Assembly (NCBI GenBank): GCA_023396915.1 | Contig: JAEWUV010000002.1 | Span: 151,705-215,704, forward strand | DNA: 64,000 nucleotides | Source: Candidatus Parcubacteria bacterium | Lineage (GTDB): Bacteria > Patescibacteriota > Microgenomatia > UBA12405 | Reading direction: 5' to 3' | Part shown: positions 3,263 through 55,994 of the stretch, piece by piece | Layout of the letters: the number at the start of each line of letters is the position of its first letter | Numbering within the stretch: position 1 is the first letter of the stretch | Translations under genes and position numbers: made by a program | Notes under the pieces: model-generated | Told to the model about the DNA's origin: nothing | Databases searched by the model: none | Seen by the model: the letters and a program-made list of their open reading frames with translations, nothing else

Positions 3263-4341
3263 AATTTAAGTGAATCAATAATAGTTTTTATAATTTTTTC
3301 GGCCTGTTCCTGATAAACATAACCTTCGGTGGCATAGGTACTAGCCACGGGAATTAAGTGTTTGGTAGTATAGATTTCGCCTTCGACTTTTTCTTTTTCA
3401 ATATAAGTATTGGTTTTGGTTAAACTTTCGTGAAAAGTCTCACCTTTGGGTAAAAAATCTAAAGTGGCAAGTAAAGTGCCAGAAATTATATATTTATCAA
3501 CCTTAAAAGCCAAACAACTTTTAATTGTTTTTGGTGGAGGAGTGGGTTCTGGGCCTTTAGGAAGAAGACCTTTGCCGGCTAATGGATCAAAACCACCACC
3601 TTGAAATTTATTAGGATCTCTGGGTTTAGGTTTTGGTTTGGGAGCGATAAAACGCTGATATTCCGGATTGTCCATCTCGGAATAAACAGCCGGATAACCG
3701 GTATATTTATCCATGAAATATTTAATACCCGAATTTTCTGGAACGGTTGGAGGTTTAACATTTTTTATTTGTTGATTAAACATATTCATTCCTTTTTTTT
3801 GCTCGGGGGTGAGAAATTTCAGAACTTCCGGATTTTGTAAGTTTTCAAATAAATTTTTGTAATTAAATCCCGGAGTGTGTATATCTATTTGGTTTTGGAG
3901 AGCTTGTTCGGCTTGAACTTCATCTGGATAAAGACAAACAGAAATGTAATAAGTGGAGTCATATTTTTCGTCTTGCATTTGATTAAATTTACCCCTGATT
4001 TCGGTTATTTTTTGAGGAGTGTAACCGGTCATCCAACCAGTGGCAGCAAGAGCGGTCATGGCATCAAAAAACTTCGTCATAGTTCCACGAGGAGTAATAC
4101 CATGAACAGAAACAGTTTCTCCGTTAACTTCGGCAGTGGGGTTACCGCTAACAAGTAAAGGATTAGCTTGATTCTCCGGGTCAAGATGACACAATTTTAT
4201 GGTTACCATGTTTTCATTCCCTTCTTGGGAAACTTCCACCCAGTTTTTTGGTAACCAATTTTTCGGTAGACTAATTGTCAGTTGATTCGTCGACATACAA
4301 AACAGTAATTTCCTGATTTTCTGGATTTTCGTAGTAAACAC
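3259..4341 (-). CDS. Hypothetical protein (Pro/Lys-rich central linker)
   Basis: 360-aa ORF. The start probably lies at an internal Met, because the listed start overlaps the upstream ORF by about 70 nt. Confidence 0.4.
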   Translation of the reverse strand: MFTTKIQKIRKLLFCMSTNQLTISLPKNWLPKNWVEVSQEGNENMVTIKLCHLDPENQANPLLVSGNPTAEVNGETVSVHGITPRGTMTKFFDAMTALAATGWMTGYTPQKITEIRGKFNQMQDEKYDSTYYISVCLYPDEVQAEQALQNQIDIHTPGFNYKNLFENLQNPEVLKFLTPEQKKGMNMFNQQIKNVKPPTVPENSGIKYFMDKYTGYPAVYSEMDNPEYQRFIAPKPKPKPRDPNKFQGGGFDPLAGKGLLPKGPEPTPPPKTIKSCLAFKVDKYIISGTLLATLDFLPKGETFHESLTKTNTYIEKEKVEGEIYTTKHLIPVASTYATEGYVYQEQAEKIIKTIIDSLKL

Positions 4342-4933
4342 TAAGAGAATTACCGTCCTTTTCCATTATGATATGGGCGGCATCAGCCTCTATGGTGTTC
4401 ATACCAGAAACATAACCATCATTGGTTAACTCTTCTACTAATTTATTCATATCTTCATTAGTCGGCGCCCTGGGAATTTTGAAAGAGGCTAGATAAGAAT
4501 CGCCTTGTTTCATGTAATTACCAGAAAAAAGAGTGGCTTTAATATCTCCAAAAACAGCCTTAAGTGGTGATTCAATGGTCGTCTTTACTATCGAAGAGGT
4601 ATTGCCAGTTAAAATAACTTCTTTGGTTTCATTAAATTTGTCTTTAGGAGTTTTAGCCGCTTCTTTAGCCTCTTCTTTTTTTTGTTCAGCTTCTTCTTTG
4701 GCTGCTTCTTGGGCAATATCTTTAATCATTTGATCGGTAAGCCCATTGTTACCACCAGTTAAATTACTTAATAAGCCAGCGTCGCCTCCATAAATTTTGG
4801 CTAGCTGTTTAACATATTGTTGTTGGCGCCAACGCGTAGCTCCATAATACAAACCACCAAGAATGATGATAGCAACGACCACAATCATAATTGGATTTAT
4901 TTTTTTACCAGAATTTTTTATTTCTTTTGTCAT
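4271..4933 (-). CDS. Membrane-anchored hypothetical protein (N-terminal TM, Glu/Lys-rich helical region)
   Basis: 220 aa with one N-terminal TM segment and an EEAKEAAK low-complexity region. Confidence 0.45.
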   Translation of the reverse strand: MTKEIKNSGKKINPIMIVVVAIIILGGLYYGATRWRQQQYVKQLAKIYGGDAGLLSNLTGGNNGLTDQMIKDIAQEAAKEEAEQKKEEAKEAAKTPKDKFNETKEVILTGNTSSIVKTTIESPLKAVFGDIKATLFSGNYMKQGDSYLASFKIPRAPTNEDMNKLVEELTNDGYVSGMNTIEADAAHIIMEKDGNSLSVYYENPENQEITVLYVDESTDN

Positions 4934-4948
4934 TTTTTTTATTAATTA

Positions 4949-5806
4949 TTAATTTTTAATTTTGAGTGAACCATCGGCTTCCATTTCTATACTACCTTTA
5001 TGTCGAGTTTGAGTTTCAAGTGTTTTTTGAAGATAGTCTTTTTGAGTGGTGTCCCAAATTGGTTCTTTTAAAATAAATTCATCATCTTTTCCAAATTCAT
5101 AGGTCATACCACGAAGCCAGAGTTCTTCCGCTATTAATTCTTTGCTTTTAGTAACTGGTGGAAGACACCCAATTGGATCAGGAAAACATGAATATTCAGT
5201 GGCGTTTATTTGGGGTTTGTTAGTAAAGGCTTCATTAAACATTAGTTTTTTATTTTTCGGATCAATATAGCCAACAAAAGAAACTGAAATAGGGCTATTA
5301 TTAATATTTTGTTTAATTAAGGCACTAGTAAAAGTTCTCCAAGGGTTTTGATAAATAATTTTGCCTTTGCCAATAATACTTATGGCGACACCATTAGTAT
5401 TAGTATTGGTAATACCAATATCTTTGGCTTGTTTAGCCCAATCAGGATTTTTTAAATCAATTGATAATTCGTCAATTTTAAAAGTGCTATTCATAGAAAT
5501 AAGTATGGGGATCATATAAGTGGGAATGTTACCATTGATTTTTTCAGTTATCTCTCCGGTCCATTTGGTATTTTTGAAATTAACCAAATTATATTTTTTT
5601 AAAATATCATCGGTGGAACCCTGAATTATAATAGCTGAAGAGGTAGCTGTCTGACCACCATCAACCATAAGATCGGCATTTTTGACACTGAATTTCAATT
5701 TATCGACAAAAAAAGACTTAATTTGGGTGGGAGTATAACCAAGACCGGTTAGTGTGACTAAAACTGCAGTTATTATAAATACTGTAATAAGAAAAGCTTT
5801 TCCCAT
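4949..5806 (-). CDS. Secreted or membrane-anchored hypothetical protein
   Basis: 285 aa with an N-terminal signal anchor. Confidence 0.45.
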   Translation of the reverse strand: MGKAFLITVFIITAVLVTLTGLGYTPTQIKSFFVDKLKFSVKNADLMVDGGQTATSSAIIIQGSTDDILKKYNLVNFKNTKWTGEITEKINGNIPTYMIPILISMNSTFKIDELSIDLKNPDWAKQAKDIGITNTNTNGVAISIIGKGKIIYQNPWRTFTSALIKQNINNSPISVSFVGYIDPKNKKLMFNEAFTNKPQINATEYSCFPDPIGCLPPVTKSKELIAEELWLRGMTYEFGKDDEFILKEPIWDTTQKDYLQKTLETQTRHKGSIEMEADGSLKIKN

Positions 5807-5852
5807 TATTCTAATTTTAGAATATGCTGTTTTATAAAAAATTCAAGTTTTT

Positions 5853-6461
5853 TCAGTTTTCTACACAACCACTATCTTTATTTATCAATGGACTTTGTTT
5901 TTCTTTTTCGTAGTTAAGAATAAAAATAGCATTGGACGTTTCTAGAGATGACAATAATTTTTCACTGTAATTCGGATTAATTTTATACCAAGATTGTTTG
6001 GTAAAATAACAGGCCATGTCTTGAGAAACAAATTTTCGCCCATGTCTGGCGTAAATTTCATTTCTAGCTCTTTTGAGATCTAAATCATCAAAATCACTTA
6101 AGTCTTTAGTGGTTATTTTTTGAGAATTAGACATTGGTAATAGATAATTGTTGCTAGTTGTATCTGGAATTATTGATGGTTCAGCTTCGGTTGGTTTTAG
6201 TGATGATGTTGGGGGTAGTGTTTCCATTGGCTCGGGAGGATGAGCTTGGGTATCTGGGATGGTGGGACGAGATTGAACACTGGGGGTGATTTCTGCTGGT
6301 TTTTTGGATAAAATGTCCCCAAATTTATTTTCAGTATTTTTGGTGCCAAAATAAACGGCTCCAGCGGCTAAAATTATAAAAACGATACCACCAGTAATCC
6401 AAACTACCTTTAGTTGATTAATTTTTTTGGGGGTACTTTTCTGACCTTTATTAAATTCCAT
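5853..6461 (-). CDS. YARHG-domain protein with N-terminal TM anchor
   Basis: Contains the RARNEIYARHGRKF motif that defines the YARHG domain. Confidence 0.6.
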   Translation of the reverse strand: MEFNKGQKSTPKKINQLKVVWITGGIVFIILAAGAVYFGTKNTENKFGDILSKKPAEITPSVQSRPTIPDTQAHPPEPMETLPPTSSLKPTEAEPSIIPDTTSNNYLLPMSNSQKITTKDLSDFDDLDLKRARNEIYARHGRKFVSQDMACYFTKQSWYKINPNYSEKLLSSLETSNAIFILNYEKEKQSPLINKDSGCVEN

Positions 6462-6525
6462 AATTTAGTTTAGCAAAAGTTGAATGTGTTTCCAGAGCGA
6501 ATTATATTTTCTTCAAAAGTAATGA

Positions 6526-7176
6526 TTATTTATAAGTTTTATTATAACAATTGGCGGCTTTGGCAAAACCGGCCTCACTGGCTTCTGCCTCACTGCAAAA
6601 CCATTGGTCGCCTTGGTCTAACTCTAGGACAACATTACTGTAATTGCCACAACCGGGGAAAAAATAAGTTTTTTTACCTTCGCGAACATTACCTTTGATA
6701 TTACATTTAGAATTTTTGGGGTTAGTATTTTGAAGACAAAGATTACTAAAGATACCGACTTTGTCCTCTTTAGCCAGATTAAAAGCCGCTTTTAAATTTT
6801 CTGATTCAGGGGAAGCAGTCGAAGTAAAACGAGCCCAACCGGAAGAAATCATTTCTTGGTTAACCAATAAATCATCAACATAAACCAGGGCTAAAAGTCG
6901 ACCAAAAGTATCATTGATATCCCCTACCAAGCGAACTTTTTTACCGGAAATTAACTCGGTCAATTTTTCGGTAGCTTGCTGGCCACCGCAAAGATCTGGT
7001 TCCGGAGCGTTGACACTCATAAGACGAATCTGCCTATTGCCGGTAACAATAAAAGTATCGCCGTCAATAATTCGGCCAACTTGGACTAAATTATCGGAAA
7101 TATTTTGGGGGTGAAAAAATAAAAAAGCTAAAACACCACTGACAGCGACAGAAAGTCCTAAGAAAAATTTAAGCAT
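6526..7176 (-). CDS. Thermonuclease (SNase-like) family protein, membrane anchored, with Cys-rich C-terminus
   Basis: IIDGDTFIV...IRLMSVNAPE motifs match staphylococcal-nuclease homologues. I place the start at the internal MLKFFLGLSVAVSG signal anchor to avoid overlap with the upstream gene. Confidence 0.6.
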   Translation of the reverse strand: MLKFFLGLSVAVSGVLAFLFFHPQNISDNLVQVGRIIDGDTFIVTGNRQIRLMSVNAPEPDLCGGQQATEKLTELISGKKVRLVGDINDTFGRLLALVYVDDLLVNQEMISSGWARFTSTASPESENLKAAFNLAKEDKVGIFSNLCLQNTNPKNSKCNIKGNVREGKKTYFFPGCGNYSNVVLELDQGDQWFCSEAEASEAGFAKAANCYNKTYK

Positions 7177-9185: not shown

Positions 9186-9908
9186 TTATTTAAAATTCAA
9201 AAAAGTTTCTTGAAACTCGATGTTGGCATCTTGATAACTTTTTTGGCTTTCATCTGTTGGAGTGGTAAATTGCCAATTCCAACATAAATCAGAAATAACT
9301 TTGAAACCAAACCAACTTAAAACTTTTTTTTGAGTTTCAACTACTTGGCTCCCTTTCCAATTATGACCAACAGCAATAATACCAGCGTCAATATTTTGAA
9401 GAACATTGGATTCGCCCAAAGTTGAATGGCGGTTTTCTAACCAAGTAAGACGTTCAATTAATTTTTGATATTCGGAATTGGTTTGACCCCAACGAATGGA
9501 AGTGAAAAATACAACACAATCTGATTGCAATAAAGATTTGGAAATTTTCCATAATTCGTCGTCTGGATAATTGAGACTGGCCCAACAACGATGACAACCA
9601 GAAGGATTTTTAAATGGATTTTGAAGTAGAGATTTTTTAACTCCACAATCATTACCCTTGGCTAAAGAAACATTGCCTTCACAAGGATAAATTTTTAGTT
9701 TGGAAACATCGATAATTTCAACATTTTTTTTACCAATCATATCGGCCAATTTGTAGGCCAACTGAGTGCTTTTGGGGATATCTTTGTTAAAAATTTTTGT
9801 CCAACGATTTGACGTAACCAAAAAAAGAATGCGTTTTTTGGATTTTAGATAAGAAAGAGTTTGGCTAAAAAGTTTGGTATATTTCAGACGGTCTTTTGGT
9901 GTGTACAT
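9186..9908 (-). CDS. Flavodoxin-fold / NAD(P)H-dependent FMN-reductase-like protein with Cys cluster
   Basis: An RILFLVTSNR N-terminus (flavodoxin-like beta1) plus several conserved Cys. Weak family-level call. Confidence 0.35.
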   Translation of the reverse strand: MYTPKDRLKYTKLFSQTLSYLKSKKRILFLVTSNRWTKIFNKDIPKSTQLAYKLADMIGKKNVEIIDVSKLKIYPCEGNVSLAKGNDCGVKKSLLQNPFKNPSGCHRCWASLNYPDDELWKISKSLLQSDCVVFFTSIRWGQTNSEYQKLIERLTWLENRHSTLGESNVLQNIDAGIIAVGHNWKGSQVVETQKKVLSWFGFKVISDLCWNWQFTTPTDESQKSYQDANIEFQETFLNFK

Positions 9909-10059
9909 CTAGATAAGTGTACTACGAAAGTGAGGGATTGGAAAAAGAACAGGATTATTAGAGTGGCGCGATGAGTGAAACCGTTTCAGACTGAATAAAT
10001 TTCTTTAATACTCTAAAAGTCAAATAAATTTTTGATATTAATATTTCAAAAAAAATAAT

Positions 10060-12858
10060 TTAATTTTTATAATTTATAGCAATTGGAGTAATATTTATTC
10101 CTAATTTTGCACAAATACTTTGTCTATTGTTTGAACTAACTTCAAATTTATAAAGATGCTCCGCAACTAACATTTTAAGCAAGCTTTTAGTTAAATAGTT
10201 ATTATTAAAACTATCATTAAGTTTGATTATGTGTGGAATATTCAGCTTTCCTTGAAAATTTAAAGAAATAGCAATATCTATTAACTCCATGGCTTGGCTC
10301 GTATTAATATTTTTAATTTTTTCTATTGTTAAAAATAAATTTTTTGAGGCAACACTATCACTTGTTCTTTTAATAAAAAAGTAGCTAATCAATTCAAAGA
10401 AATTAAAAATTAAATTATTTATTGTTGCTTCAATATCTCCCTGTAAGTTTATTTTTTTGTCCTTTATGGTCTTTAAAATGTCTTCACGGATAGAACCTAT
10501 ATATTCTTCAGAATTATCCAAGAAAATTCTCAAAGACCTTAAACCTAGAGAGTAACATTCGTTTACCATAATAAGTTTCTTTCCACCATTTATTGAACCA
10601 TAATTATTGTTTGCAATCTGTCCTAGAATCTCCATTAATCTGAAGGAAAGATTAATTTTTGAGTAAAGACTTGATCCATCGTTATTTTTTTTATGTTCTT
10701 TTTCGTTTTTCTCTTTATTAATATCGTTTTCGTCTTCCGCTTTTAATATTTCTTCCCTATGTTCTTTTGCACTTCTATTGTCAATGGATATAGAAATTTC
10801 TTTATGAACTAGATCATTTATTACTTTCACTTCTTCTTTGGATAATGTTTGAGGTGGTACTCCTTTAAAAACTTTGTTTGACTCTTCTAGAATTTTGTCG
10901 ATTAAAGATTCACTTTTTGAGTGATGTGTTAAGAAAATAATTATATTAGCATTCTCGTCATCATAAAGATTTTCAATTAATTCAAAAATGGTTTTTTTAA
11001 TGTTCTCTTTTTCGAAATTATCTGATAAGAATTTTGCAATAAAATAATAAAATGAATAATTATGATTAAAAGAATAATATCCTGTTTCGTTTTTTAAAAT
11101 TTTGGCTCTGATTAGTGTTGAGTGAACATCCTCGTATGTTTTTTCCACATCCATCTCCGAGCAATATTTTTTATATAAACTTAACAAATCTTCTTCTGAT
11201 ATTTCCTTGATTTTATTAATAAAAAAATAATTAGCTACGTACGATAAATATGTATGATAAAAATCAAGGTCTTCAGGTTTAGTGTTAACTGAAAATAATG
11301 ATTGATTAATCAAATAACCATATAATTCTGCGTATGAACCACCTTGTATTTTATTTTTATTAGAAGCAACGGTTAATTCAAGTATAGTTAATAAATATAA
11401 TGGGTATGTTGGGATAAAATTTGAGCCGACTGCTATTTTAATCTTTTGAGCAATATCATTTTTTTCACTTAAAAGATCGTCGTCGTCACGATTTGTGTTC
11501 TGATCTAAAGTAAGCCACCTATCAATCATTTTATCCCTGAGTAGGTGTCCGAATTGTCTTATTTTATATGTCTTAAAATCAATAAAAAGATTTTTTATTT
11601 CAATATTTGAAATCAATTCTATTTCCATAGAATTATTTGAAAATATATAAATGTTTTCAAATAATTCTTTTATAAGGGAAATAAGTTGATTTCTTTGTTC
11701 TACCCTTTTTGGTAAAAGTTTTTCAAAATTATCAATTATTATTACAACTTTTTTAGGGTCATTGTTTAATAAGTATTTAAAATAATTTATATCTTTTTCA
11801 GTGTATTGTTCTTTAAACTTCTTTTCCAATAATTTTTGAAATGTATCCTTATTATTGCTGGATATATCTTCGCCTCTAAGAAAAATAGTAATTAAACTTT
11901 TTTGATTTAACTCTTTTTGCAACATGAAAGCTAAAGAAGTCTTTCCAGACAATGTATCTCCAAAGATAAAAATTTTATTATCTTTTTTGTCAATTAATGT
12001 TTTAGCATCGATATTCTCGTTTTTCTCAATGTCATCTAGGGCTGGGAAAATATAAATATCTTTTAAACATAGATTGTTATTTGATGGATGATTAATATTT
12101 ATTGAGAGTTCACATGATTTGTTTATATATTCTTGGTTTAGAAAAATATCTGGATGAATTTTAAAATATTCTTCGCTATCTTCTTCGAAATTAAAGATTG
12201 TATAATGATCTAGATCTTTAAAAGTTGTATCTAACTCAGATAAATTTTTAATTAGCAAATTCTCTTCTATAATTTTTCCATTCTTTGCGTTTGTAAAAAA
12301 AAGACCAGAAGGTACACCTCCTTCAAGAAATTTTGAAACCCAAAAATATCCATATTGGCAAACTAGAAAGATAGATTCCCCTAATTTATCGTTATTTTTA
12401 ATAATATCGCTGACTGTCTTTAACGCTATCTCTTCTGAAATAATTATATGAGCTGATAGCAAAGAATTTATTATTTTGTTTGGTGTATAGAATGTATATT
12501 TGGTTGACTCTTTACTTTTTTCAATTTCTTCAATAACACCTTGGGCTTCCTTTCCGAACTCAGATGTTGAGATTAACCAGGCTTCAGGCATTTTTAAATG
12601 GGTAGTTTTACCTTCCAGTGCAAAGATTATATTTGAATCTATTTTCTTATCTTCATTATAAGCTTTACATTCCACATATATTTGTTTATTCCTGTTTGGA
12701 ATAAAAGTACACAACAAATCCAACTCCATTCCTGTTCTTCTTAGCTCTTTAGTAACTTCATAGCTTTGTGCTTTTAACAATTCCGCTGAAATATCTTCTA
12801 ATAAATCACCTTGTTCTTTTGTAGAACTATCACATTTAACTGCAACTTCAATTTTCAT
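10060..12858 (-). CDS. STAND-type P-loop NTPase with N-terminal PD-(D/E)xK (Mrr/restriction-endonuclease-like) domain; Avs-like candidate defence protein
   Basis: N-terminus carries ...GMELDLLC...IYVECKAY (D, E.K catalytic triad pattern). Walker A is IFIFGDTLSGKTSLA and Walker B is VVIIIDNFEKL. A long alpha-helical C-terminal region follows. Confidence 0.55.
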   Translation of the reverse strand: MKIEVAVKCDSSTKEQGDLLEDISAELLKAQSYEVTKELRRTGMELDLLCTFIPNRNKQIYVECKAYNEDKKIDSNIIFALEGKTTHLKMPEAWLISTSEFGKEAQGVIEEIEKSKESTKYTFYTPNKIINSLLSAHIIISEEIALKTVSDIIKNNDKLGESIFLVCQYGYFWVSKFLEGGVPSGLFFTNAKNGKIIEENLLIKNLSELDTTFKDLDHYTIFNFEEDSEEYFKIHPDIFLNQEYINKSCELSININHPSNNNLCLKDIYIFPALDDIEKNENIDAKTLIDKKDNKIFIFGDTLSGKTSLAFMLQKELNQKSLITIFLRGEDISSNNKDTFQKLLEKKFKEQYTEKDINYFKYLLNNDPKKVVIIIDNFEKLLPKRVEQRNQLISLIKELFENIYIFSNNSMEIELISNIEIKNLFIDFKTYKIRQFGHLLRDKMIDRWLTLDQNTNRDDDDLLSEKNDIAQKIKIAVGSNFIPTYPLYLLTILELTVASNKNKIQGGSYAELYGYLINQSLFSVNTKPEDLDFYHTYLSYVANYFFINKIKEISEEDLLSLYKKYCSEMDVEKTYEDVHSTLIRAKILKNETGYYSFNHNYSFYYFIAKFLSDNFEKENIKKTIFELIENLYDDENANIIIFLTHHSKSESLIDKILEESNKVFKGVPPQTLSKEEVKVINDLVHKEISISIDNRSAKEHREEILKAEDENDINKEKNEKEHKKNNDGSSLYSKINLSFRLMEILGQIANNNYGSINGGKKLIMVNECYSLGLRSLRIFLDNSEEYIGSIREDILKTIKDKKINLQGDIEATINNLIFNFFELISYFFIKRTSDSVASKNLFLTIEKIKNINTSQAMELIDIAISLNFQGKLNIPHIIKLNDSFNNNYLTKSLLKMLVAEHLYKFEVSSNNRQSICAKLGINITPIAINYKN

Positions 12859-12889
12859 CTATTTAAACAGGTTCATTAATAAAAATTTG

Positions 12890-13181
12890 CTCCCCCGCGT
12901 GGACTCGAACCACGGACCGATCGCTTACAAGAAACCCTAAAATTTCTAATAGGCTTGGACTATATCATATCCCGATAAATCGGGACTTGGGCGCTAAATG
13001 GTGTAATCACCTAGTCTCTGAACCTTTCCCGACATAAAGCCGGGACTTGGCTGCGGGTTGCCATAATCCGAAAATCGGACATTAGGTTTCACGCAATTCA
13101 CCCAATTTTTCAATCTTGATTACTCAAGAAAGCTGCTAATTTCGTAACAGGCGAGCGCTCTACCGACTGAGCTACAGGGGA
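12890..13181 (-). tRNA. tRNA-Asn(GUU) interrupted by a group I intron in the anticodon loop
   Basis: Exon 1 is UCCCCUGUAGCUCAGUCGGUAGAGCGCUCGCCUGU. Exon 2 is UAAGCGAUCGGUCCGUGGUUCGAGUCCACGCGGGGGAG. Together they fold into a cloverleaf with a U1-A72 pair and a CUGUUAA anticodon loop, as in E. coli tRNA-Asn. Confidence 0.75.
12928..13146 (-). ncRNA. Group I intron (about 219 nt, no ORF) within tRNA-Asn
   Basis: Contains the canonical group I core elements R (GGTTCAGAGACTAGG) and S (ATGATATAGTCC). The 5' exon ends in U, which pairs with G of the internal guide sequence (IGS) GCAG. The intron ends in omega-G, and a P10 pairing (UUA-UAA) is possible. Confidence 0.7.
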
Positions 13182-13235
13182 ATGTAAAATAAAATTTAAA
13201 GTGCGAAGCTGACTTTGATTATAACATTCAAATTG

Positions 13236-13910
13236 TTAAGAAAGAACACCTTTAATCCAACCTAAAGTAAGGCGTAATTTACTTACATCATAAAATCTTA
13301 TTTTTATAATTCCGAATTGATGAATGTTTTTTCTAATTTTTGGACTATCTAATTTATTTTTGGCAAAATAAGTCTTTCCAAATTGTGATGGTTTTATTTT
13401 TAATAAATTACACCAAAATTTAATAGCATTTGGTTCATTTAAATTGTCGTGTAACCAAAGACTAAATTTGAGATTATCTTTTTTGATGTTACAAAATTCA
13501 CAAATCCAATTAGTCATAAATTTTATAGTTTGAGGATCTGCATTGGTAAACTCAAGGGCATTTCCTGTTTTTGAACCTTCGCCTTGATATAAAGTTATTC
13601 CAGCAATAAATCTGTCGCGTTTATTAAGTTTCCCTACTTGGGCTATTCCCTTTTTTAATAATTCTTTTTCTTGAATTTGTCGTTTGGTTTTGTTTGTTTT
13701 AGCACCTAAAATTCTGGCTTTTGATAAACCATTTTTTTTATTTTTAATTAGTTGCTCAATTTGATAACTGCTTAATTCTATATTTTTACAATATTTTGAA
13801 ATGGTACTTTTTGATGTTTCGGTGATTTTCTCAATTTCACGATATGACAAACCTTGTTGGCGTAATTTTTGAATTTTTTGTTTATTTTCTAAATTTCCGT
13901 AAAATCCCAT
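13236..13910 (-). CDS. HTH-domain protein (possible degenerate LAGLIDADG-like or regulator) immediately 5' of the intron-containing tRNA
   Basis: N-terminal GLSYREIEKITETSKSTISKY helix-turn-helix. A central FIAGITLYQGEGSK segment weakly resembles a LAGLIDADG motif. Very basic protein. Confidence 0.3.
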   Translation of the reverse strand: MGFYGNLENKQKIQKLRQQGLSYREIEKITETSKSTISKYCKNIELSSYQIEQLIKNKKNGLSKARILGAKTNKTKRQIQEKELLKKGIAQVGKLNKRDRFIAGITLYQGEGSKTGNALEFTNADPQTIKFMTNWICEFCNIKKDNLKFSLWLHDNLNEPNAIKFWCNLLKIKPSQFGKTYFAKNKLDSPKIRKNIHQFGIIKIRFYDVSKLRLTLGWIKGVLS

Positions 13911-13974
13911 GAATTAATTATACTTAAAGAACCACTAAATACAAGGCTTTGCTTATTATTTTTTGAAAAATAAT

Positions 13975-13983
13975 TTTGATATA
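13975..13983 (+). promoter_or_regulatory. Extended -10 element (TGATATAAT) upstream of the histidine phosphatase gene
   Basis: TGnTATAAT match located 11 nt upstream of the ATG at 13994. Confidence 0.35.
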
Positions 13984-13993
13984 ATAGAACCCT

Positions 13994-14551
13994 ATGAAAT
14001 TAATTATAGTCAGACATGGAGAGACGGATGAAAACGTCAAAAAAATTATTCAGGGGCAGACGGATAATAGTCTAAACGAAAAAGGCAAAAAACAAGCAAA
14101 AGAAATTGGTAAACAATTAAAAGAGAAAGGTAAGATTGATATGGTGTTTTGCTCCCCTTTGAAAAGATGTAAAGAAACTTTGGAAGAAATTTTGTCAGAA
14201 TGCCCGATTGATGGGGAAATTTGTATGTCATGCTTGATTCAGGAAAGAGATTTTGGAGAATATACAGGGATGGAAACTTGTTTGATTAATTGGGACGAAA
14301 TATATGAAGACAGTAAATTAAATCAGGAGATGGGGGTGGAAAGTTTGGATAAACTGGAAAGAAGGGTGGAATTATTTTTGGAAGATTTGAAATTGGAAGG
14401 CGATGAAAAGACGGTTTTGATAGTTAGCCACGGAGGACCAATAATGGCAATAATCAACAAACTTAGTGGTAAAAATTTGAGATATCCGGAAGCAACGATA
14501 AATAACGGAGAGATAATGGAATTTGATTTGGACGCAAAACTGGACTTTTAG
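13994..14551 (+). CDS. Histidine phosphatase family protein (phosphoglycerate-mutase-like)
   Basis: LIIVRHGETDEN (RHG motif) and the catalytic-core pattern of the histidine phosphatase superfamily. Confidence 0.65.
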   Translation: MKLIIVRHGETDENVKKIIQGQTDNSLNEKGKKQAKEIGKQLKEKGKIDMVFCSPLKRCKETLEEILSECPIDGEICMSCLIQERDFGEYTGMETCLINWDEIYEDSKLNQEMGVESLDKLERRVELFLEDLKLEGDEKTVLIVSHGGPIMAIINKLSGKNLRYPEATINNGEIMEFDLDAKLDF

Positions 14552-14796
14552 TGATAGTGGTTAGTAATGGCCAATATTTCAATATTTTTATCAAGATCAA
14601 AGATAAAAATAACCCGGTATTTCCTATCTAGTCTAAAACTGTGAAAGCCTTTACTTCTCGGTTCTAATATTTCTAAATTCAAACTGGGGTGATTTGGATT
14701 TTTAAGAAATTGTTGGTATTGTTTCTCAAATTTTTTGACTAAATTATGATTAGAAAGATATGTCCTTTGGTCTTTAGTTAAAAAATCCAGGTTCAT
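14548..14796 (-). CDS. Type II toxin, RelE/ParE superfamily
   Basis: 82 aa. The start overlaps the upstream antitoxin stop (ATGA). C-terminal region is YRVIFIFDLDKNIEILAITNHYH. Confidence 0.5.
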   Translation of the reverse strand: MNLDFLTKDQRTYLSNHNLVKKFEKQYQQFLKNPNHPSLNLEILEPRSKGFHSFRLDRKYRVIFIFDLDKNIEILAITNHYH

Positions 14797-15083
14797 TTCT
14801 GATTAAAGAACCGACTATTTTTTAAACCATTTTCCATGTCTTTTAAAAATTCTTTGGAATATTTACCAGTTTCTTTGAGACTATTTAGAGCCTCTGAACG
14901 ACTACGGGTATCGGGTGAAGTGAAAGGAAAAGTAGTGATATTACTAATTAACTCTGGTTTGAATTGAAAAACACGAATTAAATTACGAAGTAATTCACTT
15001 CGATTTTCAAAATTATATTTGGCCGAAAGTTGGTCAATAAATTTGGCTTGTTCGTTAGTAATAGATATATTCACGGTGGTCAT
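14793..15083 (-). CDS. Type II antitoxin, ribbon-helix-helix (ParD/CopG-like)
   Basis: 96 aa with an RSELLRNLIR motif typical of RHH antitoxins. Translationally coupled to the toxin. Confidence 0.5.
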   Translation of the reverse strand: MTTVNISITNEQAKFIDQLSAKYNFENRSELLRNLIRVFQFKPELISNITTFPFTSPDTRSRSEALNSLKETGKYSKEFLKDMENGLKNSRFFNQK

Positions 15084-15130
15084 ATGACAATATTATGTCA
15101 TACTTTGGCAAACTTTGTCAAGGATTGTTA

Positions 15131-16216
15131 TTATTCCAAATAGTCTTGTAATTTCTTGCGGCGGGAGGGGTGACGGAGTTTTCTGAGGGCTTTGGCTTCG
15201 ATTTGACGAATACGTTCACGGGTAACATTAAAAATTTTGCCAACTTCTTCGAGGGTTTTTGGAGTCTCCCCCATTAAGCCAAAACGGAGAGATAAAACTT
15301 TGGTTTCGCGTTCATCAAGAGAACCGAGGACTTCTTCGATAGATTCGCGAAGTAATTCTTTGCTGGTTTCTTCATACGGAGACATTTGGGTAGTGTCTTC
15401 GATAAAATCACCTAAAAATGAATCTTCGTCATCACCAACCGGAGTGGAAAGTGAAGTGGTGTCTTGGGAGATTCGATAAATTTCTTCGACTTTGTCGATA
15501 CTAATATCAACTTCGGCGGCAATTTGTTCGACAGTAGGTTCTTTGCCTAATTTTTGGGTTAAGGCACGGGTGGCTTTGTAAACTTTGTTGATGGTTTCGA
15601 CCATATGGACGGGAATACGAATAGTTTTGGCTTGATCGGCAATAGCCCGGGTAATAGCCTGACGAATCCACCAGGTGGCATAAGTAGAAAATTTAAACCC
15701 GCGATGCCAATCGAACTTTTCAACGGCACGCATTAAACCCTGATTACCTTCCTGAACCAAATCAAGAAAAGTAAGTCCCCGACCAATATATTTTTTGGCA
15801 ATAGAGACAACTAGACGTAAATTAGCATTGATAAGATCGGCACGGGCAGCAAGAGAACCTTTTTCGATAGCCTGGGCTAAAGCAACTTCTTGGTCAAAAG
15901 TTAATAAATCGATTTTACCGATTTCTTTTAGATACATTCTGACTGAATCGACATTACCCTTTTGGGTTAAAAGACTAAGAAGTTCGGAAGAGGTAGTTTT
16001 GGAACTTTCTTTTTCGATAGCTTCTTTTGATTCGACTTTGTCAAAAACATCAATACCTCGTTCAAAGAGATAATCAAAAAGATTGTCAACGTCATCAAGG
16101 TGTTTTTCCGGTTCGGGAATTTGGGCTAAAATTTCTTCGTTGGTGAGATAATGGAGCTTCTTGGCTTGGGAAAATAGAGTCTGCTTAATTTTTGAAAGGT
16201 TGAAGGTAGAAGGCAT
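15131..16216 (-). CDS. rpoD: RNA polymerase sigma-70 factor RpoD/SigA
   Basis: Region 2 ([18 protein letters not shown]...[15 protein letters not shown]) and region 4 ([29 protein letters not shown]). Confidence 0.9.
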
Positions 16217-16249
16217 AGCCTGTATTGTATACGAAATTAACCAATAAAT

Positions 16250-18084
16250 CTAGCTTTTTTGAATTTGGACTTTTGATAACTCAGACAGGAGTTGATTATA
16301 CTCTTTTTCGACTTCGGAAAGCTTTTGTTGATTATCACTATTTTCTAATTGAGCAATTTTGGCGCTTAGAAAGTTAAGTCGGTCTTTGAGATAGAAATTA
16401 TCTAAAATGGCAACTGTTTTTTTAATTTCCAAAAGACGTTGTTTTGATTCGATGGGGTTAACAGTAGTTTCTAAATAAATATTTTGGAAAATGGGTAAGA
16501 TTTCGGCTGGTAAAAGAGAACCAAAAGTTTTGGGGTCAAATTCTTTGATTTCTAATAATTGATTAGCAATTTTTTGGAAACGGCTGTTTTGAAAACGGTC
16601 AATTTTTGGAGACAATTTTTGAGCGACTTTAATCGGATTTTTGGCACCAAGAATAAGTGTTAATAAAAGTTGTTCAAATATTTCTGTTTTTGCGGAATCT
16701 TTCGTATTATCTTTGACGGGATTAACGACAGAATTAAGAAGATTTGTGGCATTTTTATTGGTGGTAGTTATAGTATTAACACTCTTTTTTGACTCCTCTA
16801 AAATGGCATCATAATCAGAACCGATTTCATTACTTAATTTTTTTAAATAATCTGATCTGATAACTGAATTTTTGATTTTAATTAAAAAAGGTAAGACGAC
16901 GGTTAGAATTTCTTTTTTGCCTTTGATGGTATCGGGATTGTTAATTTTAATTTGGGACTGAATAATAAAATCCCAGATGGAAACTGATTGATCAAGTTGT
17001 TTTTTGAAAAATTCCAGGTCAGACTTGACGGCTTCGTCGGGGTCTTTGTATTTGTCGCCCAGAACCAAAACTTTGATATCGAATTCCATAGAGTCGGCTA
17101 ATTCAATACTTTTTCGGGAAGCATTGGAACCAGCAAAATCGGAATCTAAAGCTAAAATTAGGGTATCAGTGTAACGACGAAGAAGTTGAAGTTGGTCTTG
17201 GGTAAAGGCCGTGCCTTTGATAGCCACAATATTTTTTACTCCAAATTGAAAAGGAGAAATCATGTCAAACTCCCCTTCGGTAACAATAACGGCATTTTGT
17301 TGACGAATAAAATCTTTGGTAAGGTGTAAGCCAAAAAGATTGTAACTTTTGTGATAGATTTCGGTTTCGGGAGAATTAATATATTTTGCCAGAGCCTGCC
17401 TGCCAGCAGGCAGGCTCTGATTTTTACTGGTTGGGAATATCCGACCGGAAAAACCTAAAATTCGGCCACGATAATCGGAAAGAGGAAAAGTCAGACGACC
17501 CTGGAAACGGTCATAAAGACGGGAATTATACTGACTTTGACCGAAAGTTCCTGAGGCAATTAAATCAGCGACTTTGTAACCTTTTTTGGTAAGAAAATTG
17601 ATAATAAGTTGGGGGTTTTCGGGTGAGTAACCAATGCCAAATTGTTTAATGGTATTCAAATTTATTCCCCTACCTTTGACATAATCGAGGGCATTTTTAC
17701 CCAAAGGATGACTTAAAAGCATGTATTGGTAAAATTTTTCGACCTGAGAATTTAAGTCTATTAAAACTTTTTTGCGGGATTCCTGTTTGTCGGTAAACTC
17801 GCTTTTTTTGAGAGTGATACCGGCCATGGCGGCAAGTTCGGTGAGGGCTTCGGGGAAAGTGATACGTTCGTATTCTTGTAAAAAAGTAAAAATATCGCCA
17901 GCTTTGCCACAACCAAAACATTTATACATTTGGAGTTCTTCGGAGACAGTGAAAGATGGAGTTTTTTCGCCATGAAAAGGACAGCAAGCGATGTGGTTGC
18001 GACCGCGTTTTTTGAGGGGGACAAAACGGTTAATTACATCGACAATATTGAGTTTTTGTTTGATTTCCTCGACCTGATTCTCCA
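16250..18084 (-). CDS. dnaG: DNA primase DnaG (start moved to GTG at 18084)
   Basis: CCPFHGEKTPSFTV zinc-binding motif and a TOPRIM domain (VIVTEGEFDMI...LDSDFAG). The listed ORF's first about 46 aa are translated from repeat elements, so I chose the GTG preceded by a TATAAT. Confidence 0.85.
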
Positions 18085-18101
18085 CTGAGATATTATACCT
18101 T

Positions 18102-18255
18102 TTAAAATCCCCTTCGGCTACGCCGCTTTCCCCTTTGAAGAAGGGGGACCTTAAATACAAAACACTCCCCAACCACTCCCTCGACAGGGTGGGGTTTTGA
18201 TTACAAAACCCACTCCGTTTCATGGATCTCCCTTAAAAAGGGAGGCTTTAAAAAC
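18102..18255. repeat. Composite palindromic repeat cluster (type B + A-like + C-like hairpins)
   Basis: AAAATCCCCTTCGGCTACGCCGCTTTCCCCTTTGAAGAAGGGGGA ... CTCCCTCGACAGGGTGGGG ... TCTCCCTTAAAAAGGGAGG. Units here also occur at more than 15 other loci. Confidence 0.8.
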
Positions 18256-18257
18256 AC

Positions 18258-18791
18258 TTATTTCCTTTTCAAAATTAAATAGACACATTTTACGTTTAAG
18301 TTATCGGGCCATTCGGGCCAATGAAAATAAAAATATCCCTTATCACCTTGTGAAGTATTGATTTTCCAGCCCCATTTTTTATAAATTTTTAGGGTTTTAG
18401 TATTGTAAATGTTGGTATCAAGTAACAAATTTCTATTTTCGGCAAATTTTAAAGCTAAATTATATAGTTTTTTACCAATACCGTGATGCTGAAAATCAGG
18501 GTGGACATAAAATCCAAAAAATTTAGCGGTATTTTTATCAATAATTTTACAAGTGGCCGAACCAATTAATTTAGTGTCAGAAAAAGCTAGCCAAGTTTTT
18601 TGGGTAGAAGAGTTAATTAGACTGGTTTTAAAATTTTTTTTGGCCTTAGGGGTATTAAAAATTTTTGGAGAAAAACATTCTTTGGTTAGACCAACTTTGG
18701 GATTGGTATAAGCAAATTCGTAAGTAGTTTGGAGAAGATTTATATATTCTTTTAAATTAGACGGTTTGGCTAGTTTAATATTAATATTCAC
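18258..18791 (-). CDS. GNAT family N-acetyltransferase
   Basis: FFGFYVHPDFQHHGIGKKLYNLALKFAE acetyl-CoA-binding motif. Confidence 0.7.
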   Translation of the reverse strand: MNINIKLAKPSNLKEYINLLQTTYEFAYTNPKVGLTKECFSPKIFNTPKAKKNFKTSLINSSTQKTWLAFSDTKLIGSATCKIIDKNTAKFFGFYVHPDFQHHGIGKKLYNLALKFAENRNLLLDTNIYNTKTLKIYKKWGWKINTSQGDKGYFYFHWPEWPDNLNVKCVYLILKRK

Positions 18792-18802
18792 ATTGATTAG
18801 TA

Positions 18803-20038
18803 TTATTTTTTGATTTCGATGTTGATATGTTTGGGGGTGAAGATTAGGAGAACGATACTAAGTAAAATATTAAAGCCAGCTAGAAATGAAAAAGTGGCGC
18901 TGACACTAAAGTTGTCGGCGATTAAACCGGCAAAAATAGGACCAATAATCCAGCCAAAATTAGTACTAAAATCGCTTAACCCTTCGATTTCCCGATCATA
19001 TTTCTCAGACTCATAAATATAATCACCATAAGCACCATTTATTGATGGCCAGGCGATGGAAAATATTAGAGAAGAGATAAAAACGGTAATTAAAATAAGA
19101 AGAGGAATTTTAATAATAAACAGAGGGAAAAGAATGATATTCCCAATTAAAAAGGCTATAAAAGCAGTTTTTTTCTTCCCAAATCTTTTATTAATCTTGC
19201 TAACAAACCAGCAAGTAAGAAGACTAGGAACGGTATACATTAACATAAATAATCCACCAAAATCTTTAAATTCAGGAAAATCTTGGGAAAAAAGTGGTCC
19301 AATCACCCAAAAAGCGGCATCAAATGAACTAAGAAAAATATTAAATAACAGAACCGGAAATATTATGAATCCAATTTTTCTCCAAATAGAAAACTCTTTG
19401 GCAAAATCGGAACGACAACGACGGGGCAAAACTATCTGAGTGTCTTTGAAAGAAAGCTTGACTAAAACTAAATAAAACAAAAAAGAGATAAATAAAAATA
19501 CTAAAGCAACTAGGAAGGGGGTAAAAGTAACCATACCAGTAATTAAAGCTCCGGCTACAGTAGGAGCAATAGATATGCCGACACCTCTGGCAATACTGAT
19601 TATTCCAAATCTTTGAGAATTGTTTGATTTGGAATGATTACCAATAAAATCAAAAATAGCAAAATTTATTAAATCGTAATAGAGTCCCCAAATTGCCATA
19701 GCAATAACTGAGAGGAAAAGTAGTCTGGATGAAGACCAAAGCACTAATGGGAAAATGGAACAAAGAATGTAGAAAAACAAGAATAACCGTCGATAATGAG
19801 TTTGTTTGAAAAATCTAGAAAGTAAAAAATCAAAGGTTGCTCCAAAAAAACTGGAGGTAGATATAATTAAACCAACTTGAGTTTTTGTTAGACCGATTTC
19901 ACTAAAAAAAATAGGAATTAAATAGCTGAAAGTACCATCAAAAATAGCCCAAAACACGACAATTAAAATAATATTGGAAAAAATTTTTTTATCTAGAGGA
20001 AAACGAACTATTTTGGCAGTGAGATTTTTTAAAAACAT
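18803..20038 (-). CDS. MFS-type transporter
   Basis: 411 aa with about 12 predicted TM helices. Confidence 0.55.
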   Translation of the reverse strand: MFLKNLTAKIVRFPLDKKIFSNIILIVVFWAIFDGTFSYLIPIFFSEIGLTKTQVGLIISTSSFFGATFDFLLSRFFKQTHYRRLFLFFYILCSIFPLVLWSSSRLLFLSVIAMAIWGLYYDLINFAIFDFIGNHSKSNNSQRFGIISIARGVGISIAPTVAGALITGMVTFTPFLVALVFLFISFLFYLVLVKLSFKDTQIVLPRRCRSDFAKEFSIWRKIGFIIFPVLLFNIFLSSFDAAFWVIGPLFSQDFPEFKDFGGLFMLMYTVPSLLTCWFVSKINKRFGKKKTAFIAFLIGNIILFPLFIIKIPLLILITVFISSLIFSIAWPSINGAYGDYIYESEKYDREIEGLSDFSTNFGWIIGPIFAGLIADNFSVSATFSFLAGFNILLSIVLLIFTPKHINIEIKK

Positions 20039-20041
20039 TTT

Positions 20042-26722: not shown

Positions 26723-26799
26723 TGGTGGGTATGCATGGACTCGGACCATGGACCCCCGACTTATAAGATCGGTGCTCTAACCAACTGAGCTACATACCC
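26723..26799 (-). tRNA. tRNA with UAU anticodon (Ile-type), CCA encoded
   Basis: GGGUAUG acceptor, D arm GCUC-AGUUGGUUA-GAGC, anticodon loop CUUAUAA. The T loop UCCGAGU has C at position 55, which is unusual. Confidence 0.55.
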
Positions 26800-45798: not shown

Positions 45799-45807
45799 TA
45801 TTCCTCG

Positions 45808-46235
45808 GGGATGTATTGCATCGACGGGACAAGAACTTTAAAAAACTGCAAGCCGACTTTGATTAAATTAAGTCGTAAAACAGAATCAAAACAAAACATG
45901 CCAAATCTAATTTTGGTGAGAAATTTAATTTAGCCACTTCTTTTGGAAACTATGGTTTTCAAAATAATGCTAACTTAGCTTACGCTTTAGCATAAGCTTC
46001 TCCATTTACTATTTCCCTTTTCTGAAGAGAAATTGTAAGTGCCAACTAAATCAGAATGCTATTTTTAGAATCTCAATTTTTTAAAAATCTAAGAGGAGGG
46101 TAATGCCTTCACCAATTGACGTTTTAACGCCTTTTATTTACTTTAGCTGTTGAAAGTGTAGGAGAAAATAATTTAAGCTTGTAGATGTTTTTTACAGTCT
46201 GTTTTCGGACCCGGGCTCGATACCCGGCATCTCCA
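45808..46235 (+). ncRNA. ssrA: tmRNA (SsrA), about 428 nt
   Basis: 5' end GGGGATGTATTGCATCGACGGGA (the conserved tmRNA 5' acceptor/D-arm-like motif, GGGG..CGACGGG). Internal tag reading frame ...GCT AAC TTA GCT TAC GCT TTA GCA TAA (ANLAYALA-stop) at about 45968-45994. 3' T arm CCGGG-CUCGAUA-CCCGG and acceptor CAUCUCC-A. Adjacent smpB. Confidence 0.8.
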
Positions 46236-46240
46236 CTATT

Positions 46241-54470: not shown

Positions 54471-55962
54471 AAAGGAGGTGATCCATCCGCACCTTCCAGT
54501 ACGGATACCTTGTTACGACTTAACCCTCATCGCTGAATTTACCTTGGTCCCTGGCGAACCAGAGCCTTTGGGTACCCTCAACTTTGCTGATTTGACGGGC
54601 AGTGTGTGCAAGAGGCGAGAACGTATTCACCGCAATCTGCTGATTTGCGATTACTACCAATTCCGGGTTCATGCAGGCGAATTTCAGCCTGCAATCCCAA
54701 CTGAGGGATGGTTTAGGGATTAGCTCCACCTTGCGGTCTTGCAACCCTCTGTCCAACCCATTGTAGGATGTGTGTAGCCCTGGATATAAGCATCATGATG
54801 ACTTGACGTCGTCCCCTCCTTCCTCCCAACAAAATAATGCTGGGCAGTCTCGTATGACACGATAACATACGATAGGGGTTGCGCTCGTTACCTCACTTAA
54901 GAGAACAACTCACGTCACGAGCTGACGACAGCCATGCAACAGCTGTGTATCACCCTCGAAGGCGGCTCTACTTTCATAAAGCTTGCAGATACATTTCAAA
55001 CCCAGGTAAGGTTCATCGCTTCGTATCGAATTGAACCACATGCTCCACTGGTTGTGCGCCTCCCCGCCAATTCGTTTGAGTTTCGGCCTTGCGGCTATAC
55101 TCCCCAGGCGGTCTGTTTAACGCGTTAGCTAGCATCTCCCGGAAAAAATCCGGAAAATTAACAGACAATGTTTACGGCTAGGACTACTCAGGTCTCTAAT
55201 CTGATTGGCTACCCTAGCTTTCGTCTCTGAGTGTCAGTATATACCTGGTTACCCGCCTTCGCGCTTGGTGTTCTTTGTGGTATCCACGGATTTTACCCCT
55301 ACACCACAAATTCCAGTAACCCCGATATAACTCTAGTCTTCCAGTATCCTGCCCCTGCCCCTGATTAAGTCAGGGTCTTTGAAACAAGACTTAAAAAACC
55401 ACCTACAGACGCTTTACGCCCAATAAAACCGGGCAACGCTTGGAACCTACGTATTACCGCGACTGCTGGCACGTAGTTAGTAGTTCCTTATTCTGGGCGC
55501 CTTCATGGCTCCCAAAAAGTAGTTTACGACCCGAGGGCCTTCATCCTACACGCGATGTCGCTGCGTCAGACTTTCGTCCATTGCGCAAAATTCCTAACTG
55601 CTGCCTTCCGTAGAAGTATGGGCCGTGTCTCAGTCCCATTGTGCCGGACTCTCCGCTAAGAGCCGGTAGCCGTCATAGCCTTGGTAAGCCATTACCTTAC
55701 CAACAAGCTGGTAGCGAGCACACCACTCCCTTTGCGACTTGCGTCTTTAATCCGAAGATACTATAGGAAATTACCCCACCTTTCGGTGGACTATGTCCTA
55801 CAAAGGGGCATGTTTGTACTTATTACTCACCCGTTCGCCGCTAAACTTATTCTTTACACTCAAAAGCCAAAAAGCTTTTAGGTGTAAAAAACAAGTCCCG
55901 CTCGACTTGCATGTCTTAGGCACATCGCCAGCGTTCACCCTGAGCCACGATCAAACTCTTAG
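54471..55962 (-). rRNA. rrs: 16S ribosomal RNA (complete, about 1.49 kb, no intron), not linked to 23S/5S
   Basis: Minus strand reads AAGAGTTTGATCGTGGCTCAGGGTGAACGCTGG at the 5' end and ...AAGTCGTAACAAGGTATCCGTACTGGAAGGTGCGGATGGATCACCTCCTT at the 3' end. Internal GTGCCAGCAGTCGCGGTAATAC is a variant of the 515F site. Confidence 0.9.
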
Positions 55963-55994
55963 TACTAACAATCTCGACAAATTCGAGATCAAAA

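Follow-up and report, generated by a model that had tools for sequence, protein, structure and literature searches.

A Mrr-type nuclease on a DS-8/PDC-S60-like STAND core: a likely single-protein anti-phage system in a Shapirobacteria genome

The 64,000-nucleotide stretch analysed here (hereafter the window; contig JAEWUV010000002.1) encodes, on its minus strand at 10060..12858, a 932-aa protein in which an N-terminal Mrr-type nuclease domain is joined to a STAND (signal transduction ATPase with numerous domains) NTPase core and a helical C-terminal domain. Its catalytic motifs are intact, it is homologous to the DS-8 and PDC-S60 proteins, its family swaps effector modules on a common core, and its gene constitutes a low-GC (guanine plus cytosine) insertion. 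We consider it likely that this is a single-polypeptide anti-phage STAND protein of the nSTAND4/PDC-S60/DS-8 family, resembling the NLR (nucleotide-binding, leucine-rich repeat) immune proteins, with a Mrr-type DNase output and an abortive mechanism. Its trigger, oligomerisation, DNA cleavage and abortive outcome are inferred by analogy and are worded conditionally below. The host is a metagenome-assembled genome of Candidatus Shapirobacteria (candidate phyla radiation, CPR/Patescibacteria), as seen from its RpoD homologs, and the ultra-small CPR-like bacterial origin suggested in a preliminary description of this DNA was therefore correct.

The open reading frame (ORF) is complete and intact, from its ATG start to a stop codon at 10060-10062, and a 2.8-kb open frame in DNA of 25% GC makes a chance origin far-fetched. 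The frame and the motifs quoted from its translation in the preliminary description were all found exactly as described, namely GMELD (with D47), YVECK (E63 and K65), GDTLSGKTS (300-308) and VVIIIDNFEKL (371-381). Conservation was assessed in an alignment of 34 full-length homologs with 33-75% identity, and the proposed structure prediction, an AlphaFold2 model of the full-length protein built on 34 homologs, was confident (mean predicted local distance difference test score 84.7), with an all-helical C-terminal third. Residues 1-125 (12484..12858) form a PD-(D/E)xK nuclease domain of the Mrr_cat type, the presumed effector, as judged by Pfam, invariant residues and DSSP of the model. DSSP also delimits a small domain of a helix and a three-stranded beta element with no assigned role (residues 126-215; 12214..12483), followed by a linker (216-290; 11989..12213) around which the PDC-S60 and DS-8 profile matches start. 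The P-loop nucleotide-binding domain (NBD; 291-435, 11554..11988) was placed by its Walker motifs and Foldseek, and the helical domain (HD; 436-550) and winged-helix domain (WHD; 551-615) that complete the STAND module (11014..11553) by DSSP, Pfam and Foldseek. The all-alpha C-terminal domain, the presumed sensor, occupies residues 616-932 (10063..11013) in the DSSP assignment. All these segments lie on the minus strand. Mean pairwise identity among the 34 homologs is highest in the nuclease (52%), followed by the C-terminal domain (40%) and the beta domain and linker (34-35%).

The nuclease assignment is based on a Pfam Mrr_cat match at residues 18-111 (36.1 bits; cutoff 21), on the nuclease catalytic residues E21, D47, E63 and K65, which are invariant in all 34 homologs, and on the alpha-beta-beta-beta-alpha-beta order of the model (helix 13-30, strands 33-37, 48-52 and 55-65, helix 75-88, strand 92-97). 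Furthermore, residues 1-217 (12208..12858) share 45-47% identity with the N-terminal parts of nSTAND1-type proteins of Vibrio, Providencia, Pseudomonas, Acinetobacter and Halomonas (L027-L056), a likeness about equal to that with the modules inside the protein's own family. The nuclease and the beta domain move together as a single module. That this identity is found across unrelated STAND cores implies that the two domains have been exchanged between them as an effector cassette.

The core that follows the linker contains a Walker A motif (G300-x4-G305-K306-T307) of which G300, G305 and K306 are invariant in the 34 homologs, a Walker B motif (hhhhD376-N377) with an invariant D376, and an equally invariant R441-D442 pair in the helical/winged-helix part. 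The winged-helix domain coincides with a full-length match to the Pfam profile nSTAND_NTPase4 (PF24406, 'Novel STAND NTPase 4') at residues 551-607 (40.6 bits, E=2.7e-10, cutoff 27). In a Foldseek comparison with the PDB the best matches were NLRC4 (E=9e-9), the NACHT domain of NLRP3, phage-portal-bound Avs4 (8DGF, E=1.7e-6) and EfAvs5, with ORC/Cdc6-type AAA+ proteins ranking lower. The succession of NBD, helical domain and winged-helix domain, together with the NACHT-like fold, is that of a STAND/NLR-like protein. At the sequence level no relative was found in the PDB, Avs4 included, either by the protein alone or by a profile of 34 sequences. The preliminary description had named a housekeeping ATPase of the KAP or ABC type with a degenerate N-terminus, lacking a PD-(D/E)xK fold, as the outcome that would overturn its reading. 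Although weak generic P-loop matches (AAA_22, AAA, APS_kinase) could be taken in this sense, the STAND fold, the specific and high-scoring matches to defence families, the intact restriction endonuclease (REase) triad and signature, and the absence of the gene from the same locus in close relatives effectively refute this alternative.

The family to which the protein belongs was identified by two long profile matches. The NCBIfam model NF053861 'DS8_antiphage' matches residues 234-921 with profile positions 304-994 (E=8.4e-172, 573.3 bits). DS-8 is a single protein found by DefensePredictor, with an N-terminal metallophosphatase and a NACHT-type NTPase, that protects E. coli from phage (PMC13092281). 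In PADLOC, whose results are matches to its hidden Markov model (HMM) profiles, the PDC-S60 model PDLC05050 matches residues 209-923 with positions 163-890 of 906 (E=2.2e-97), which covers ~80% of the profile and ~77% of the protein. The nuclease, NACHT/STAND and helical C-terminal architecture of the preliminary description is thereby borne out (Pfam Mrr_cat and nSTAND4, PDC-S60, DS8_antiphage, Foldseek, invariant residues), and its reading of an Avs-like defence protein also holds, given the PDC-S60 (E=2e-97) and DS8_antiphage (E=8e-172) matches, the Foldseek ranking of NLRC4, NLRP3 and Avs4, and the invariant catalytic and Walker residues. The protein belongs to Pfam nSTAND4 and is homologous to the DS-8 and PDC-S60 proteins. 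It is neither an equivalog of DS-8 nor, by the PADLOC models, one of Avs1-5.

When 1.84 billion cluster representatives were searched exhaustively with HMMER, 2,121 clusters matched the profile at E<=1e-30. The STAND core is thus common to at least ~2,000 protein clusters, a figure in which coverage of the C-terminal domain was not counted per cluster. Most of the best 150 of the 2,121 are ~1,020-1,050 aa long and align only from profile position ~230 on, like the metallophosphatase-type members, while full-length Mrr-type proteins make up ~35-40 of these 150 clusters. There are ~70 clusters of full-length homologs of the window protein. In the reference genomes the same core is preceded by a metallophosphatase (L019, L024, L033, L049), a TIR domain (L021, L022, L025, L026, L040), an alpha/beta hydrolase (L016; also P0070) or, in the window protein and its full-length homologs, the Mrr domain. 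To exchange effectors while conserving the switch and the C-terminal domain is a hallmark of NLR-like immune proteins. The spread of the family is patchy over many phyla, with full-length Mrr-type copies in Chloroflexia, Campylobacterota, Gammaproteobacteria and the CPR lineages Azambacteria and Saccharibacteria. Since all members have 860-1,050 aa, whichever the phylum, the length of 932 aa is a trait of the family and not a result of CPR streamlining. The 'compact CPR variant' of the preliminary description must be given up, as members from Chloroflexia, Campylobacterota, Gammaproteobacteria and elsewhere are of equal size.

In the proposed mechanism, the protein would be present in the uninfected cell as an autoinhibited, ADP-bound monomer. 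Binding of a phage-derived trigger to the C-terminal helical domain would let ADP exchange for ATP at the Walker A/B site, and the protein would then oligomerise via the NBD-HD-WHD module. The Mrr domains thus brought together would become an active nuclease that degrades DNA indiscriminately, so that phage replication would be halted at the expense of the cell (abortive infection). For Avs7 it has been reported that activation needs ATP binding and does not need hydrolysis (PMC13581612). An alternative is an NTP-dependent, type IV-like restriction enzyme that cuts foreign (e.g. modified) DNA directly, with neither trigger sensing nor suicide. Pfam describes Mrr_cat as the catalytic part of Mrr, a type IV enzyme, several homologs are annotated by NCBI as 'restriction endonuclease', and one close homolog adjoins a type I HsdR gene. 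The NTPase, though, has a winged-helix domain and is a switch of the STAND/NACHT-like kind, not a translocase or McrB-type GTPase, and restriction would give the conserved 315-aa C-terminal domain no role. Moreover, a TIR, metallophosphatase or hydrolase domain can take the place of the nuclease on this core, and since the nuclease is interchangeable in this way it behaves as an output module rather than a determinant of specificity. We therefore regard direct restriction as improbable and favour a triggered, NLR-like switch.

Several points weigh against this proposal. The assignment of defence to a Mrr effector on an nSTAND4 core is inferred from homology and analogy to DS-8 and Avs. Pfam NA-iREase1, a profile for an 'inactive' REase, also matches the N-terminus (29.3 bits). 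This identity was rejected, as the catalytic residues are all present and invariant, and since the nuclease is the most conserved domain of the protein, the sequence argues for a predicted active enzyme despite the co-match. The DS8_antiphage score does not reach the equivalog cutoff of 790 bits, because profile positions 1-303 are unmatched, the N-terminal third being different; Pfam finds no Metallophos match at the N-terminus of the window protein. No Avs, AVAST or bNACHT model among the PADLOC HMMs matched at E<=0.1. The C-terminal domain had no significant match among solved structures in the PDB, tetratricopeptide repeats (TPR) were not demonstrable in it, and its role as a sensor is presumed from its position and by analogy. 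Strict membership of the Avs group (Avs1-5) was accordingly not upheld. At Walker B, N377 replaces the second acid (D) of the family consensus, at a position that is variable among the homologs. A scan for promoter consensus returned fewer promoter-like matches than shuffled sequence, and none between the tRNA gene upstream and the start codon. Finally, no other ORF within +-10 kb matched a PADLOC model, leaving the STAND gene solitary.

Some of these points would also suit a recently acquired, non-functional passenger, for example one that is NTPase-dead through the D-N exchange at Walker B, as would the low GC of the solitary insertion and the lack of a recognisable promoter. Against this, a frame of 932 codons has stayed open although the DNA is AT-rich, the remaining catalytic and structural invariants are all in place, position 377 varies in homologs that are otherwise conserved, and the identical 932-aa protein is carried by 17 contigs and lies on a scaffold of 906,714 bp. 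A dead passenger is therefore very unlikely in our judgement, and we retain a functional defence protein as the preferred reading.

The C-terminal domain of ~315 aa, all-helical in the model, has 20-30% identity to that of the metallophosphatase-type (DS-8-type) members. A recent STAND survey clustered only sensors of >=400 aa (PMC13581612), and this domain falls under that size filter. It is a tentative suggestion, and one we hold to be less probable than the overall proposal by far, that the domain represents a structurally new and unusually small class of STAND sensor, whose cue, from phage or cell, is perhaps unlike that of the large TPR sensors, which engulf structural proteins of the phage. 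Were this true, few self-contained nuclease systems of the NLR-like kind would be smaller than the Mrr-armed CPR form, and it would be a tractable model for studying the gating of a STAND switch by a minimal sensor.

The genomic context shows that the gene was acquired horizontally: it is a single-gene insertion of low GC, placed at a variable site beside a tRNA-Asn gene. The ORF sits in a GC trough (~25% against ~35% in the surrounding DNA), and the 3' end of the tRNA gene lies 30 bp upstream of its start codon. On the other side is an FMN_red/flavodoxin-like gene (9186..9908, Pfam). The flanks given in the preliminary description were thus found in place, with a helix-turn-helix (HTH) ORF, a His_Phos_1 gene (13994..14551, Pfam) and a pair of small ORFs beyond the tRNA gene. 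Compared with relatives, divergence begins right at the tRNA 3' end and homology to the empty site returns ~60 bp upstream of FMN_red, near 9950; the STAND ORF is for this reason read as an insertion of ~2.94 kb (9951..12888, minus strand; GC and junction alignment) that contains no other gene and is missing from the empty site of the relative L009. No 11-mer of the tRNA-Asn 3' half recurs in the window as an att-type repeat would, the segment contains no integrase, and no target duplication is seen where the junctions are aligned to the empty site. An integrated island with att repeats was ruled out on the basis of the missing tRNA-derived repeat and target duplication. A promoter or terminator of its own was also considered for the STAND gene, and the consensus scan gave it no support.

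The presence/absence comparison that had been recommended across related genomes was run, and the locus proved variable, the gene being missing from the same site in L004, L008 and L009. The backbone DnaG-RpoD-...-His_Phos_1-...-tRNA-Asn is kept in the relatives, and the content after the tRNA gene differs each time. In L009 an intron-less tRNA-Asn is followed directly by FMN_red (the empty site), in L004 by a large serine recombinase and mobile-element genes (13650-21028), in L058 by a large serine recombinase and a terminase gene (4006-6678), in L008 by a Crp-like regulator, and in L059 by a GIY-YIG ORF (3981-4361), a type also present in L060. The 3' flank of tRNA-Asn is a variable cargo hotspot and not a multi-system defence island, since the STAND gene has no PADLOC neighbours, His_Phos_1 belongs to the backbone and a putative toxin-antitoxin (TA) pair nearby is variable. 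The 'small defence island' of the preliminary description is not supported: besides the lack of other PADLOC matches, His_Phos_1 is conserved in every relative examined and the HTH ORF tracks the intron-bearing tRNA, not defence genes. The putative TA pair (14548..15083, minus strand), of the ribbon-helix-helix and RelE/ParE-like types, consists of ORFs of 82 and 96 aa with a 4-bp overlap, 1.7 kb from the STAND gene. Its matches are all below the Pfam cutoffs (HigB, YoeB and ParE at E=9e-5 to 1e-3, RHH_1 at E=0.004), and the putative toxin ORF matches a RelE-like toxin in PHROG at E=7e-5. The pair also occurs in L008 (11548..12083), L058 (1766..2298) and L059 (1241..1764) and is absent in others of the relatives. 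The slot between RpoD and His_Phos_1 is a second small variable site, which holds TA-like pair, NUDIX, GIY-YIG or DUF1444 genes.

Elsewhere, GC of the gene is below that of its flanks in 19 of 20 loci, and TIR- and metallophosphatase-type relatives are found on plasmids. A search of 50,697 phage records yielded no relatives, and the STAND protein had no PHROG match. When the three nearest ORFs on each side were surveyed at the 20 loci, the neighbours, amid housekeeping genes, included type I restriction-modification systems (three loci), Septu PtuA, Mokosh MkoC, Abi_2, a DpnI-like enzyme and several PDC candidates; the HsdR gene mentioned above adjoins the homolog P0003 (69% identical). These observations bear on another alternative, in which the same biochemistry serves competition between mobile elements, addiction, or the relationship of a CPR episymbiont with its host. 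Such a role could be accommodated by the serine-recombinase- or terminase-bearing mobile elements at this site in relatives, by the plasmid-borne relatives, by the episymbiotic nature of CPR bacteria (PMC12259885) and by DS-8 itself having no known trigger. Since the sole tested member of the family defends against phage, relatives are lacking in the phage records, and classical anti-phage systems are enriched around the gene at other loci, we think this role improbable and maintain that the protein is probably directed against phage.

The neighbouring tRNA-Asn(GUU) gene (12889..13181, minus strand) contains a group I intron. Default ARAGORN gave no tRNA beside the STAND ORF, and the intron escaped an Rfam scan of the whole window at 'gathering' settings. 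A local Rfam scan found it at 12936..13156(-) with 78.9 bits, and in-silico splicing and the intron-allowing mode of ARAGORN gave a canonical tRNA-Asn(GUU), so that the intron-containing tRNA-Asn of the preliminary description is confirmed. The intron comprises 219 nt (13146..12928) and is located at anticodon-loop position 35/36; this type of tRNA-Asn intron has been published and shown to self-splice (PMC13011429). It is polymorphic in close Shapirobacteria relatives, being present in the window and in L008 (tRNA gene at ~12862..13196) and absent in L004 (tRNA gene at 13616..13691) and L009 (6731..6803), while the tRNA-Asn exons of the window and L004 are 100% identical. The adjacent 'HTH' ORF of 224 aa (13236..13910, minus strand) is a member of a family of ~225-aa proteins found across the CPR. 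The family profile has a weak match to the LAGLIDADG homing endonuclease I-DmoI (E=0.13), in which the C-terminal half is aligned on the second LAGLIDADG motif. In seven of seven loci with the family gene (the window, L058, L059, L061, L063, L064 and L065, the last with an entirely different neighbourhood), the same strand carries, 80-150 bp downstream, an intron-containing tRNA, identified as tRNA-Asn wherever a call could be made; the family gene is missing in the two intron-less loci and also in the intron-bearing L008. This suggests, from a small sample uncorrected for phylogeny, that the ORF encodes a free-standing homing endonuclease or a splicing cofactor for the tRNA-Asn intron.

In other parts of the window, PADLOC matches of the DnaG-like, mad3/PtuA-like and mad8-like types were considered as defence genes; on our reading they come from DnaG, from a RecF-like ATPase (56140-57207) and from a conserved DUF87 protein (22684-25014). 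The RecF-like ATPase, a 356-aa ORF that matches the mad3, PtuA and GajA ATPase models of PADLOC, is probably a housekeeping protein. It is adjacent to the 16S rRNA gene at 54471..55966(-); a 23S rRNA gene was not detected in the 64-kb window. A PADLOC MzaA match (E=2e-68) came from an ORF within 29.9-63 kb, more than 10 kb from the STAND gene, and from none of the 30 ORFs that were tested singly. A tmRNA gene is present at 45807..46238(+) by Rfam (91 bits), unreported by the ARAGORN window scan. ARAGORN places a tRNA-Ile with anticodon UAU (tat) at 26723..26799(-), beside two tRNA-Met(CAU) genes, and the same arrangement is found in L008. A tRNA-Ile(UAU) is uncommon in bacteria, AUA being usually read by a lysidine-modified CAU tRNA.

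Both building blocks of the protein, the style of their recombination, CPR defensomes and the tRNA-Asn intron type are already known. CPR defensomes in particular have been surveyed at scale (PMC12259885), which tells against the remark in the preliminary description that anti-phage STAND systems are little explored in these bacteria. What is added is that the validated, mechanistically uncharacterised DS-8/PDC-S60/nSTAND4 family also occurs with a predicted DNase effector, and that the Mrr-armed form has entered ultra-small CPR genomes, where its gene of ~2.9 kb stands alone. For specialists in defence systems this provides an extra effector class and a clean case of presence and absence, and it flags a compact sensor domain without a solved relative. 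We regard it as a credible yet fairly ordinary defence gene that leaves the current picture of STAND immunity unchanged.

Among known systems, the proteins that combine Mrr with nSTAND1 (e.g. P0081; Vibrio, Providencia, Halomonas, Acinetobacter) have nearly the same N-terminal module as the window protein, whereas their NTPase core (Pfam nSTAND1, PF20703) and C-terminus are unrelated to it beyond the P-loop, and unlike the window protein they do not match PDC-S60. PDC-S60 (PDLC05050, PDLC05051) is a computational candidate family, and the Mrr, TIR, metallophosphatase and hydrolase forms all match the same model. The first ~160 positions of PDLC05050, which the window protein leaves unmatched, are probably a TIR domain, since relatives with N-termini of that length carry TIR. 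In a literature search the Mrr form of PDC-S60 was not specifically described, and no paper was found that names 'nSTAND4' or 'PDC-S60'.

Avs4 (EcAvs4, 8DGF), Avs3 and Avs7 follow the same tripartite logic of N-terminal PD-(D/E)xK nuclease, central STAND NTPase and C-terminal sensor. The Avs4 nuclease is Mrr-like, and Avs3 and Avs7 carry Cap4 nucleases. The window protein belongs to a different STAND clade (nSTAND4) from these three, and with 932 aa and a presumed sensor of ~315 aa it is shorter than the ~1,540-aa chains of 8DGF. In the STAND phylogeny of Gao, Koonin and colleagues, 589 clades are distinguished, of which 198 are defence-associated, and the names Avs1-24 are given; nuclease-bearing Avs proteins form a trigger-induced, ATP-dependent tetramer that degrades dsDNA, with no requirement for ATP hydrolysis (PMC13581612).

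The closest comparison is with DS-8 (DefensePredictor system 8; E. coli WP_032203427.1), whose defence is lost in the phosphatase mutants D52A and N84A and in the Walker A mutant K375A (PMC13092281). It shares with the window protein a homologous STAND NTPase and the whole C-terminal region, a single-protein organisation and a similar overall size. Its N-terminus is a SMPDL3A-like metallophosphatase of ~300 aa, where the window protein has a Mrr-type nuclease and a small beta domain, and the presumed output would accordingly differ, being phosphodiester or nucleotide hydrolysis in DS-8 and DNA cleavage in the window protein. Given this homology, the window protein has its switch and C-terminal part in common with a validated defence protein and is equipped with another N-terminal module.

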